A stretch of DNA of 64,000 nt from positions 55,676,001 through 55,740,000 of the forward strand of contig OX597831.1 of the NCBI GenBank assembly GCA_951406725.2, in the 5' to 3' direction. The notes beneath the pieces were generated by a model. The model did no database searches. It saw only the letters and a program-made list of their open reading frames with translations, and was not told the origin of the DNA. Numbering within the stretch: position 1 is the stretch's first letter; each line of letters starts with the position of its first letter. A program made the position numbers and the translations under genes. This document shows, piece by piece, positions 27,164-32,949 of this stretch. The DNA comes from Octopus vulgaris (Eukaryota).

Positions 27164-28249
27164 TCAAAGTTCTATATCTGTCGGTAACGCTTTTACAAAA
27201 AGGATTTCGTTAAGTGTGCTGAACTTAAACTTCTGAGGGCAGGATGTGTTCTGAATGTTTTTGTCTGTTAACACTTTACCGTCCTTCATGTAATTCTTTT
27301 TGCTTTTTGTCTGGCACCAAGTTATCAATTTGTCAATCACGGGCGTTTCTTGCTGAAGAATTTCAGCCACACCTCGAATTACAATTAAACCATACGATAA
27401 ATATTCTGAGATTCGCTCTTCTAAATCTGGTGTGTATTCTGACTTTTTCCTATCTTTTTTCATTGGGTGCTTAATGTCTCCCCATATCTTACAAGTTTTC
27501 AATGTTGTCAGTAAGCTACTGCTGTCTCCAATGCTGTCTTTAAATCCTGCAAACCATTCTTCTATTCCTTTATAGTCGTTGATTTTCAATTCTGGTTTGC
27601 CTGTTTTTATAGCCTGGATAATTTTAGAACATTCATTAGAACACTTTGAAATCATTTCGGCTGTCTTTTCGCTGACGTCTTCGAATAATCCCAGTTCACT
27701 TTCCAGCGGCTTTTCGTCCCATTCACTCCATCTTCCAAACAAAAGACAGCATTCGAGATATACGAAGGGCGACAGGAGTACAGACATAAAGTTAAGAGAA
27801 TTTTGAAGAGCACAATCACCGCCAAGTATTAACTGCAAAATTGACAGTGGCCCACGTTTCGGGGGAGATGTCCCGAACAGAGTAGAGGTTACGATCGATG
27901 CTACTGTCACCTTGACATCAATTTGAGAACCAAATTTGACTTGTTCGCATACCCAAGGACACGTCTCTAAGTTAACGATGGTACATTGTTCACCAAGCTC
28001 TTCCAGACTTGTCCGGCACTGATATTCAAAACCTGATCTGCCAGGTACACCGATGATAACCGTTCTCTTTTTAATGTATTTCTTCATGGCTTTTAAATAA
28101 TCTTGGAAATGGTTTGGAGGAGAAGACAGTATGATAACATCACTTTCAGCGACGAAATCTCCTGCTTTATCCGTTATTGTTCCAGGTCTTCCGTTTTCGG
28201 GAAACATAGAACCGTCTTTTCTTGGAAAATTGATCACCATTTTTGCATC
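27164..28249 (-). CDS. Opine (octopine/tauropine) dehydrogenase-like gene, coding exon 2 (361 aa plus stop)
   Basis: Uninterrupted ORF with acceptor TTTCAG|GAT GCA AAA ATG in phase 0 with exon 1 (intron 28250-32796). Motifs SDVIIL, GFEYQCR, ETCPWVC, LFGRWSEWD.KP, CSNEC, DKLITWCQ and CPQKFKF align with octopine dehydrogenase (recalled GFEFQCR, ETLPWAC, LFGRWGSWDGKP, CSNEC, CPQRYGF). Confidence 0.92.
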   Translation of the reverse strand, partial: DAKMVINFPRKDGSMFPENGRPGTITDKAGDFVAESDVIILSSPPNHFQDYLKAMKKYIKKRTVIIGVPGRSGFEYQCRTSLEELGEQCTIVNLETCPWVCEQVKFGSQIDVKVTVASIVTSTLFGTSPPKRGPLSILQLILGGDCALQNSLNFMSVLLSPFVYLECCLLFGRWSEWDEKPLESELGLFEDVSEKTAEMISKCSNECSKIIQAIKTGKPELKINDYKGIEEWFAGFKDSIGDSSSLLTTLKTCKIWGDIKHPMKKDRKKSEYTPDLEERISEYLSYGLIVIRGVAEILQQETPVIDKLITWCQTKSKKNYMKDGKVLTDKNIQNTSCPQKFKFSTLNEILFVKALPTDIEL

Positions 28250-30345
28250 CTGAAATATTAAATAATAAAATTGTCTGTTAGAAAATATACTAAAAAAAAA
28301 AAGCTAATAGAAAAAAAATCAGAAAAGAAAATTTATTTGCGACAGAAGCTGTATTGGTTCAGAATAGCATTCTGTATATTTTACTCAACGTGTGTACACT
28401 ATAGAAAGCCACAAAACTACAGTATTCGTCTTGAGAATACTCAAGTGGTTTGTGGCTTTCTATAATATATGAACGTTAAGTCAGGTTGTGTTCTTGAGCA
28501 AGGCACTTTATTTCACGTTGCTCCCGTTCACTCAGCTGTAGAAATGAGTTGCGACGTCACAGGTGCCAAGCTGCATCGACCTTTGTCTTTCCCTTGGATA
28601 ACACTGGTGGCGTGGAAAGGGGAGGCTGGTATGCATGGGCGACTGGTGGTCTTCCATAAACAACCTCGCCCGGACTTGTGTCTAGGAGGGTAACTTTCTA
28701 GGTGCGATCCCATGGTCTGTGTCGTGACCGAAGGGGGTCTCAGAAGTCAGGTATACAGAAATAAGAAAAAAACATTACTGTAATCCGACATCTTCCCTCA
28801 GAGTTACTGTCGTGGCTACCTTGAGTAAAGTGATAACACAAAATTTCCAAATTGGTAAAACTAACCTTGTGGATTCTTCATCGCTATCGACGATGAGCAT
28901 CCAATTGTCGAATAATTGAATTCTTACATCTGAAATTAAGCTGTGAACCACTTCGTAATTTCACAGACATATGTATCCTTAACACTTTAACACTAGAGTC
29001 AGGTCGAATCAGCGTCTCACGCTATGATTAGCCTAGATCTTTGAATTGCATCTACAAGCCAGACAGAAAAGGGAAAACCAACAAATTTCAGTGCTGCATT
29101 GACAGTGTTTGTCAACTTCGGCGAGACTTGAACTTTGAAACGGATGGAACCAGAGTGAATACTGCAAGGTATTTTGCGTTACATGATGGCGATTTTGAAA
29201 ATTCATCCCCTTATGAATCCTTACAACATTAGAGAAATATATGATTTCCCAAATTGATAAAGTTAGCTCAGATTAAATTTTATTCGCCTTGAGAAACAAA
29301 AATCTGCCCTTTCGAGTCTGACGCTTGATTTTAATATATATATATATATATATATATATATATATATATATATATAGATAGATAGATAGATAGATAGATA
29401 GATAGATAGATAGATAGATAGATAGATAGATAGATAGATAGATAGATAGATAGATAGATAGGTAGATAGAGAGATAGAGATAGATAGATAGAGATAGATC
29501 GATAGATAGCTAGATAGATAAGAGAGAGAGAGAGAGAGAGAGAGAGAGAGAGAGAGAGAGAGAGAGAGAGAGAGAGAGAGAGAGAGAGAGAGTTTCTTAG
29601 ACAAAAAAAAACAGTTTTAAATTTCAGATTCGTCGTTCCCCAAAGTAACACCAAATGCTCGAAATACGAGGCTAGAAAAACAGCCAACAATTGATGAAGG
29701 GATGTTCTTTATTTTGTTTGTTTTGTTTTCCATTTGTGTCTTTCGTTGTTCGAAAGAAGAGTTCATGTTCCATGTATTCGTGGTTCGTACATTTTTGTTG
29801 TACACGTTTCGTGACGTCCTGTGCTTACATATGCATATATATACGTATAGATGTAAGTATGTACATATACGTATGTATATATGCATATATATATAAAATA
29901 CAAAATGGAACAAGAACGTAAAACATCCGGACAACTAGGTGATACAAAAAGGGACAACAAAACGTCAAGATAGACGATACAAAAAAACAAGGACGGGTCA
30001 TTCGAAGCTTTCTATCCTCAGTCAAGAACCGGATCATTCTCGCAATTTCGGCTGATTAATCTTGAGATTGCTCCAATCTGGCCAGCTCCAAGAAAAAACT
30101 AAGCTAAGAGCATTAGATTCCTTGGAAGAAAGCATCGAATGTATATGAAAACAAGGACAGAAAAACAGACGATGTTACCCGAATATAAATATAAAATACA
30201 ATAAAAAAATAATAATATTAACAGGACAAAACAACAGGTGTCTTTCGACTGGGGTCGAATTGAATTCAGCTGGCGTGTGTGGAAGTGAAGCCTTACGGCA
30301 GAGATACAAAACTTTCATATATATATATATATATATATATATATA

Positions 30346-30587
30346 TAATATTATTAGTGAATTGAAGAAATGGAGTTGAACGAAGATTGAACAGAAATCT
30401 TCGTTCAACTCCATTTCTTCAATTCACTAATAATATTAAAATTCAATTATCCGCACCAACGCACGGTTGCAACACCATATGGTTGTACCTCCAACCGTGC
30501 TGTCTTCTGCTGTGATTTTTGCTACCAAGGTATCGGTTAAACTTTTGATTAATCTGCAACAAGATTATTCATCTTTCTATTTCACAA
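30346..30587 (+). mobile_element. (TA)n-flanked element with palindromic 5' end
   Basis: Palindrome at 30346-30438. A near-identical body occurs at 53786-54058 with a different palindrome centre. Confidence 0.75.
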
Positions 30588-30684
30588 TATATATATATAT
30601 ATATATATATATATATATATATATATATATATATATATATATATATATATATATATATATATATATATATATATATATTTATTT

Positions 30685-31198: not shown

Positions 31199-31246
31199 GT
31201 CTCTGATGAAGGGATATATAAAAGATCCCGGAAACAGCTGTAAGAC
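31199..31246 (+). ncRNA. Minimal type I hammerhead ribozyme motif (Penelope-like pLTR type)
   Basis: GUCU-CUGAUGA-a-GGGAU..AUCCC-g-GAAAC agcu GUA-AGAC, with palindromic stem III (ACAGCUGU). It lies in a ~350 bp element (30946-31298) flanked by (TA)n on both sides. Confidence 0.8.
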
Positions 31247-32796
31247 CTATTTATAAATGTTCTGAAATCTTTCACAGTCCTGGATTTTTATCTCATTATA
31301 TATATATATATATATATATATATATATATATGTATATATATATAAAATAAAATAAATGCACCCTTTTTAAAGCCTACCCAGGCTCATGGACCCGGTTTCC
31401 CGGTTTCTATGGCTTATGTGTTCTCCAGCTGGATGGGACGCCAGTCCATCGCAGCGTTACTAATTTTTGCCAGCTGAGTGGACTGGAGCAACGTGAAATG
31501 AAGTGTTTTGCTCAAGAACACAACGCGTCGCCTGGCCCAGGAATCGAAACCACAATCTTACGATCTTGATGTTGACACCCTAACCACTAAGCCATGCGCC
31601 TCCACACACACACACACACACACACACACACACACACACACACACACACACACACACACACACACACACACACATATATGCGGATTTTGTTCCGTCGTTT
31701 TACATTCTTAGTTCACCTGCGACGACATTTGAGCTAAGTGGTATCGGCCGTTGGCTTTCGCCTGGGCAATATCGATGGTAAGAGGACGGGAAAATTTGTT
31801 GGATGAACAAATGGTTGTCTTCCATAAGAAACATTGCTCTGGTGAGTGATCTTTCAGTTATGGCTACAATATCATGTACATCGATCGACGGAGACCGTAA
31901 AGATCGTCACTATATTGCCGTGTCTATTTGGCTGAAAGTCGCACGCACACACACGCTGTTATGTGTAGTTTGGGTTCTAATGGGAAAGACAACCAGTTGA
32001 AAACCATTGTTATGTGTACGTCTTTATTTTACATTACTTGATAGACGAACGACGACATTAGCGTAGTGATACATTATATACTTAACACACAGTTTGTACT
32101 GTTCACTAACAAATAGTGCCAAGAGTAGGGAGTAGTTTGGCATTCGTAAACACACAGATATGAATGTGTAACACACGCATATACGTGCATACAAGCACGC
32201 ACACAAACGTATTCAATCATACGCACAAACAAACGCACAAACACATACATAGAATGGGTACCGAAAAGACAAACATAGATTACACCTTTGGTCATAGATG
32301 GAGCAATACAGTGATCAGAGTCAAAGGCGCTCATCTGTATACCAACAACAATAGCAGCAGCAGTGGAGGCGCAATGGCCCAGTGGTTAGGGCAGCGGACT
32401 CGGAGGATCGCGGTTTCGATTCCCAGACCCGGCGTTGTGTGTGTTTATTGAGTGAAAAAACACCTAAAGCTCCACGAGGCTCCGGCAGGGGGTGGGGGTG
32501 GCGACCCCTGTTGTACTCTTTCGCTTCAACTTTCTCTCACTCTTTCTTCCTGTTTCTTGTCTCTGACTTCCTACGCAACCACTGAGCCTGGATGCGCATT
32601 CATCCATCCGTCGATGCTCTCGGTGTCGGGGGTTGACCTGCTTTCTCCTCTGCGGGTCTTACGAATAGCAAAGGACCACGTTTCGGACTTCTCCCGAGGC
32701 GCGATCTTGCGAGCTCTGGGACGAAGACCGCTTCGCTCAATAAACAAACAAACAAACAAACAAGCAGCAGCAGAAACAACAGTAACAACAATATAC

Positions 32797-32949
32797 CTTT
32801 GCTTTCAGAGCAGTTTTCCAGTTGTCTGCTGCTTTGCTCTCTGTGGCAAAAACCGTGACTTCCATGTTTGGTCTTGACGAAGCCAATCCTGCTATAAGTT
32901 GAGAAGTAGGATTACTTCCACACACCGTAATCTTCACTGGGCTACCCAT
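32797..32949 (-). CDS. Opine (octopine/tauropine) dehydrogenase-like gene, coding exon 1 (51 codons, start of the Rossmann fold)
   Basis: MGSPVKITVCGSNPTSQLIAGLASSRPNMEVTVFATESKAADNWKTALKAK matches the N-terminus of molluscan octopine dehydrogenase (recalled as VKVCVCGGGNGAHTLSGLAASRDGVEV). A pyrimidine-rich AG acceptor lies at 32956-32955, 5 nt before the ATG. A phase-0 donor AAG|GTATAT lies at 32796. Confidence 0.88.

Follow-up and report, generated by a model that had tools for sequence, protein, structure and literature searches.

The minus strand of a 64,000-nucleotide stretch of the Octopus vulgaris genome (contig OX597831.1; the whole 64-kb stretch is called the window) carries a two-exon gene for a protein with the fold of the opine dehydrogenases, in which the residues that define the active enzymes have been replaced. 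Judged from its residues, the octopod protein is probably a pseudoenzyme, homologous to an active enzyme but without its catalytic residues. Exon A (32949-32797, 51 codons) encodes residues 1-51, which form the first strand and helix of the Rossmann domain, and its N-terminus matches the database records P0006, P0008 and P0004. Exon B (28249-27164, 361 codons and a TGA stop) encodes residues 52-412, which form the remaining Rossmann domain and the entire helical opine-dehydrogenase domain (PF02317; 48 bits against a cut-off of 30). Both parts of the architecture, the N-terminal Rossmann domain and the C-terminal helical domain, are present. The exons are separated by a phase-0 GT-AG intron of 4547 bases (28250-32796; donor GTATAT, acceptor TTTCAG), which contains microsatellites and, at about 28485-28717, an interspersed high-copy repeat with hundreds to thousands of matching contigs per sequencing run. 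The initial annotation had described a clean 412-residue frame with canonical splice sites, and this frame is that of CAI9736206.1 (P0006), 'octopine dehydrogenase-like [Octopus vulgaris]', with the same length and both ends matching; the sequence is already in the databases, under an automatic name. By tblastn, there is no second copy of the gene inside the window.

The gene probably extends past 27164-32949, through a candidate 23-base upstream exon (52366-52344, minus strand, AG...GTAAGT) that would encode part of the N-terminal extension of a longer database model (P0003, 426 residues). Five bases (32950-32954) lead from a candidate splice acceptor to the start codon of exon A, as judged from frame continuity with the same model. 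At the other end, bases 27138-27163, the first of the 3' untranslated region, lie under a contig of probable RNA origin. The O. sinensis RefSeq model XP_029646135.1 (P0005) lacks exon A and takes its N-terminus from intronic bases 28825-28930 (minus strand), which is probably a mis-prediction; runs X1 and X9 have no depth over 28825-28930, a hint against that model.

We compared the octopod protein with Pecten maximus octopine dehydrogenase (OcDH; structure 3c7a) using phmmer, which aligned residues 5-402 (E 8e-71), and used MAFFT alignments as a second register. Residue equivalences were counted along the printed alignments; the number 329 for the dyad Asp comes from this count and from the initial annotation, and not from PMC2924402. 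According to PMC2924402, the scallop enzyme uses a His-Asp proton relay in which His212 also holds the arginine carboxylate, Arg324 grips the NADH pyrophosphate, and Glu142 and Trp278 hold the guanidinium group. The His-Asp dyad and the GxGxxG/A dinucleotide-binding loop are named as the conserved core of opine dehydrogenases in PMC10787698, PMC11084901 and PMC2924402.

All three elements of this core are altered. The scallop Rossmann loop CGGGNGAH becomes CGSNPTSQ at residues 10-17 (32899-32922; GGGNGA to GSNPTS), a degenerate NAD(H) pyrophosphate loop in which the second Gly is replaced by Asn and followed by Pro; the Argonauta loop reads G-S-E-P-T-A, with Glu in place of that Gly, and none of the octopod proteins has the GxGxxG/A loop. 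The catalytic His212 aligns with Glu217 (27752-27754), and Glu is found there in all four octopod proteins. The dyad Asp329 aligns with Tyr334 (27401-27403) in the three Octopus-type proteins and with His in Argonauta. The loop and His replacements had both been read correctly in the initial annotation, which had also read the segment carrying Arg324 and Asp329 as altered; the Asp-to-Tyr change stands, and a loss of Arg probably does not. Arg330 (27413-27415) falls in the Arg324 column with both HMMER and MAFFT, and an adjoining one-residue deletion leaves the register uncertain by one, such that Arg330 is the probable counterpart of the scallop NADH sensor and Arg324 has probably been retained. 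Mutation of these residues was reportedly found by Mueller et al. in 2007 to cripple the scallop enzyme. The guanidinium ligands are kept in all four octopod proteins, as Glu146 (27965-27967) and Trp283. The equivalents of scallop His95, Lys163 and Arg149, otherwise invariant residues, are lost. The alignments of the octopod proteins contain no His/Asp or glycine motif at shifted positions.

These replacements are rare among homologues. From 623 homologues found with HMMER, we took the best 150 and counted 115 non-octopod representatives of 350-540 residues, dropping 34 of other lengths. Among the representatives with a residue at the respective position, His is found in 105 of 113 (the rest being three Asn, two Tyr, two Arg and one Gly, with no Glu), Asp in 109 of 111 (no Tyr), the second loop Gly in 103 of 107 (no Asn) and Arg at the Arg324 position in 102 of 109. 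His and Asp are missing together in 0 of the 115, and in a closer set of 45 proteins only in the four octopod proteins and the bivalve-type P0191. The guanidinium Glu and Trp, kept in 4/4 octopods, are present in 38 and 55 of the 115. Across 82 columns that are invariant in 12 canonical-type homologues, the octopod protein is altered at 33, and 29 of these 33 new residues are identical in Argonauta. By these counts, the octopod replacements lie far outside the family's variation.

The altered protein is conserved. The O. vulgaris and Argonauta hians proteins are identical at 345 of 412 residues (84%), and the O. bimaculoides orthologue, with 94% identity (23 changes over 361 residues), carries the same replacements as O. 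vulgaris. The frames are open in O. vulgaris, O. sinensis (exon B), O. bimaculoides and Argonauta, with none of the stops or frameshifts of a pseudogene. Branch lengths are 0.02-0.1 among the octopod proteins versus about 1 substitution per site on their stem. Five of the seven base differences listed in contigs of other samples are synonymous (P 0.006-0.019 versus neutral expectation), which gives a rough omega of 0.11-0.15. A predicted model (pLDDT 90) superimposes on Pecten OcDH 3iqd with a TM score of 0.92 and a root-mean-square deviation of 1.8, at 32% identity over about 400 residues; together with the PF02317 match, the model indicates that the OcDH fold is intact, in keeping with the structural motifs that the initial annotation had recognized. 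In a fold search, opine dehydrogenases rank at the top, and Atlas searches return opine-dehydrogenase clusters only.

Sequencing runs hint at a transcript. At least half of exon B's words occur in 20 of 24 listed runs from 8 studies, none of which is on record as RNA. In X9, a probable-RNA run, a 1511-base contig places its first 1114 letters on 27138-28251, while its other 397 letters diverge from the genomic sequence at the acceptor, which fits a spliced transcript; a contig of run X20, by contrast, reads through the acceptor into the intron. Run X1, although indexed as containing the exon, has no contig over it, an observation without weight either way. Because the orthologues carry the same replacements, the fold is kept and the probable-RNA contig departs from the genome at the acceptor, the gene does not appear to be a decaying pseudogene. 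Taken together, the comparisons indicate a gene that is intact and under purifying selection, and the rough omega and the open frames likewise speak against a young pseudogene.

A second question is whether this gene is a paralogue or the only copy. Octopine dehydrogenase (ODH) activity has been measured in O. vulgaris paralarvae (PMC5473251), and primers for an Octopus ODH marker are given in Table 1 of PMC6058003. These primers have no site within three mismatches in the window, and their nearest sites in the octopod gene carry 5 and at least 6 mismatches over 18 bases. The peptide encoded by the reverse primer does not resemble the octopod protein; the forward primer encodes the motif SRPN, found among 202 proteins only in the octopod protein's records and in P0011, another OcDH-like protein. 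The measured activity and the primer mismatches therefore point to a separate canonical gene, and it is likely that such a related ODH gene exists in Octopus and that the present gene arose from it. Neither a named canonical ODH of a cephalopod nor a named orthologue from squid or cuttlefish appeared in word-index searches or among the best 150 of the 623 HMMER matches, which marks a limit of sensitivity and not an absence. A profile search returned four proteins only.

The catalytic His is also replaced in other molluscan OcDH-like proteins, a point that goes beyond the initial annotation. The position is held by Gly in Tegillarca KAJ8306082.1, by Asn in Mercenaria, Mactra, Ruditapes and Patella, and by Tyr or Arg in other records. 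In a 40-row tree computed with the trait columns removed, the 17 His-less rows need six changes, at least four of which are forced by well-supported branches. In a 20-row tree, a single origin of all eight His-less OcDH-like rows is rejected (p-AU 0.00025), and a deep grouping that unites the octopod protein with P0011, P0012 (the Tegillarca cluster) and P0013 was not demonstrated, nor was it rejected (p-AU 0.4). Both groups were named after earlier trees had been seen. These trees indicate that the catalytic His was lost in molluscan OcDH-like proteins by more than one event. Two trees place P0011 (406 residues) as sister to the octopod protein (99/97 with LG+G4 and 97/93 with a mixture model), a pairing that carries a long-branch warning and could still reflect long branches. 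On present alignments, degeneration goes furthest in the octopod protein, which has lost His, Asp and the second Gly together. Within the same family, a heterodont-bivalve OcDH duplicate (P0176, P0178-P0181, P0185 and P0192, from Mercenaria, Mactra, Ruditapes and others) has Asn in place of His and keeps Arg and Asp, and its His-keeping sister group (Mya, Dreissena and P0010) has lost the near-invariant Lys163.

We consider it likely that the octopod protein is expressed and selected and is without opine dehydrogenase activity; we infer the loss of activity from the residues. The proposal of the initial annotation, a maintained non-catalytic or neofunctionalised paralogue, is thereby supported, given the lack of shifted motifs, the sharing of the replacements by four octopod proteins, the extent of identity with Argonauta and the intact fold. 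In the mechanism that we propose, a cephalopod ODH gene would have been duplicated, would have changed fast along the stem (about 1 substitution per site) and would then have come under purifying selection. The Asn-Pro or Glu-Pro in the glycine loop would block normal dinucleotide binding. Without His212 and Asp329, the protein would lack both a proton relay and an anchor for the amino-acid carboxylate, and consequently would carry out no reductive condensation. The retained Glu146, Trp283 and Arg330, together with the closure of the two domains, may be used for binding arginine-type guanidino metabolites.

The role that we tentatively hold most likely is that of a cytosolic, NADH-independent sensor or buffer of arginine-type guanidino metabolites. 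We favor such a binder because Glu146, Trp283 and Arg330 are kept in 4/4 octopod proteins, although the Glu and Trp vary in the wider family. Several observations weigh against it: the equivalents of these three residues are retained throughout the OcDH clade, the backbone of the arginine site is changed in the octopod protein, and net negative charge has been lost (predicted pI 7.8-8.2 in the octopod proteins versus 5.2-5.9, with 5.2 for a scallop homologue). We hold a role purely as a protein scaffold to be only slightly less likely than an arginine-type binder. More speculatively, molluscs may repeatedly, and perhaps from before the bivalve-cephalopod split onward, have made non-catalytic proteins from spare OcDH copies, with the octopod protein as an end point: an NADH-independent pseudoenzyme that would sense arginine or octopine (or a new thiol or metal catalyst in the old cleft) and would link the arginine-phosphate/octopine anaerobic system to regulation. 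We regard this wider scenario as doubtful.

Among the alternatives, the best surviving is a neofunctionalised enzyme, in which the old cleft would house other, probably NAD-independent, chemistry or a metal by way of Glu217, Cys218, Cys219, Cys148 and Arg122 of the octopod protein; we consider it unlikely. These new polar and thiol residues lie at or beside the positions of the former catalytic residues and do not vary among the four octopod proteins, which have 13-15 cysteines versus 6-8 in canonical-type homologues, and Glu is fixed at the His position while the Asp position varies between Tyr and His. However, the other His-less molluscan homologues have Tyr, Gly, Arg or Asn at the His position, and the replacement therefore looks like relaxed constraint instead of one new chemistry. 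In addition, the fold search places no match having another kind of active site ahead of the opine dehydrogenases.

Less probable again, and a sub-case of the non-catalytic reading, is a bulk structural protein of lens, cornea or reflector tissue, by analogy with the enzyme-crystallins of cephalopods, whose S-crystallins derive from glutathione S-transferase and whose omega-crystallin derives from aldehyde dehydrogenase. Beside this precedent, PMC10225486 reports that a gene named odh1, of whichever paralogue, is highly expressed in flying-squid photophores.

We give a still slimmer chance to a weak or shifted opine or imine reductase, in which Glu217 would donate the proton and the binding of NAD(P)H would be changed. 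Some imine reductases do use an acidic residue or Tyr as the proton donor, and the octopod protein keeps Arg330, Glu146, Thr147 (in 3/4), Pro149-Trp150, Cys152 and an intact fold. In contrast, its second loop Gly is Asn or Glu followed by Pro, at a position that is Gly in nearly all representatives; the dyad Asp is gone; and the counterparts of His95, Lys163 and Arg149 are gone as well. A young pseudogene drifting after duplication would account for the long stem branch and for the loss of many family-invariant residues, but the open frames across octopods, the short branches within them relative to the stem and the synonymous excess make it very improbable.

The least probable alternative is that adenosine-to-inosine (A-to-I) editing of the mRNA restores a working enzyme. 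Editing of the key codons, raised in the initial annotation, could act on the loop in part: codons 12 (Ser, AGT) and 13 (Asn, AAT), at 32911-32916 on the minus strand, would each become Gly by A-to-G changes, so that two loop glycines could be restored, and the comparison with a probable-RNA contig covers exon B only. By contrast, the Glu217 codon (GAA) can yield only Gly, the Tyr334 codon (TAT) only Cys, and Pro14 cannot be changed; as read from these codons, editing could restore neither His nor Asp. Along exon B, the X9 contig differs from the genome at two sites, both shared with X19 and X20 and neither at a key codon, with the proviso that contigs drop minority variants.

Two further ideas about the protein were dropped. 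The idea that the protein had acquired a basic surface or a nuclear signal was rejected, since 23 basic gains are matched by 21 acidic gains and bivalve OcDH is lysine-rich there too. N-myristoylation and a C-terminal PDZ motif, judged by consensus patterns, fit poorly, and the C-terminus is not conserved in Argonauta.

Elsewhere in the window, bases 11077-11526 (plus strand) hold an unbroken 139-codon match to the ankyrin region of MYPT1/PPP1R12 (E 1e-62 to 1s70_B), preceded by a stop and soon followed by further stops; this stretch is likely a broken processed copy. Four stop-free stretches (34903-35502, minus; 62235-62588, plus; 1971-2531, plus; 57681-58217, minus) resemble by eye a retrotransposon endonuclease, a mariner transposase and LINE remnants, which we presume them to be; none has a Pfam match at E 0.1. 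Among the database proteins, P0113 and P0126 begin with an opine dehydrogenase domain whose glycine loop is degenerate, fused to a Gly/Ala-rich hydrophobic stretch that is presumably, from its appearance, akin to IFI6/IFI27.

In invertebrates, opine dehydrogenases are regarded as the counterparts of lactate dehydrogenase, and studies of mollusc genomes and stress take genes named 'octopine dehydrogenase-like' to indicate anaerobic capacity. Such readings can mislead, because the opine reaction is probably beyond the octopod copy and several copies from clams, ark shells and limpets. A selected, folded and dead opine dehydrogenase would, if true, be an undescribed class of pseudoenzyme as far as the searched literature reaches; within that literature, which omits most subscription journals, we found no paper on the octopod protein's accessions or on a cephalopod pseudoenzyme. 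The surprise is limited, as the case concerns a single gene family of one phylum and pseudoenzymes are widespread in nature. The function of the octopod protein is directly testable, because the structure of an active relative has been solved and the assay is simple.

We close by placing the octopod protein among known systems. With pseudoenzymes at large and the cephalopod crystallins, it shares a kept enzyme fold, a lost catalytic capacity and a gene under selection; it differs from the crystallins in having a single known copy and no expanded family, and the likeness to them is one of precedent alone. The His-less OcDH-like proteins of Tegillarca, Mercenaria, Mactra, Ruditapes and Patella are similarly full-length, annotated as octopine or opine dehydrogenase-like or as hypothetical, and have the His replaced; unlike the octopod protein, they keep Asp and the second Gly, and most are of separate origin. 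P0011 resembles it in the SRPN motif, in its sister position in trees and in the replaced His (by Tyr), but is only 34% identical and keeps Asp and the GxG loop without the Arg. Pecten maximus OcDH (EC 1.5.1.11; 3c7a, 3c7c, 3c7d and 3iqd) has the same two-domain fold. From it, the octopod protein has kept Glu142, Thr143, Pro145-Trp146, Cys148, Trp278, Glu328 and probably Arg324 (scallop numbering), and has changed His212 to Glu, Asp329 to Tyr or His, GGGNGA to GSNPTS, Gln118 to Arg, His95 to Phe and Lys163 to Val. It belongs to the opine dehydrogenase fold family and should not be filed as an octopine dehydrogenase, because the three defining features of the active enzyme, the loop, the His and the Asp, all fail in it.

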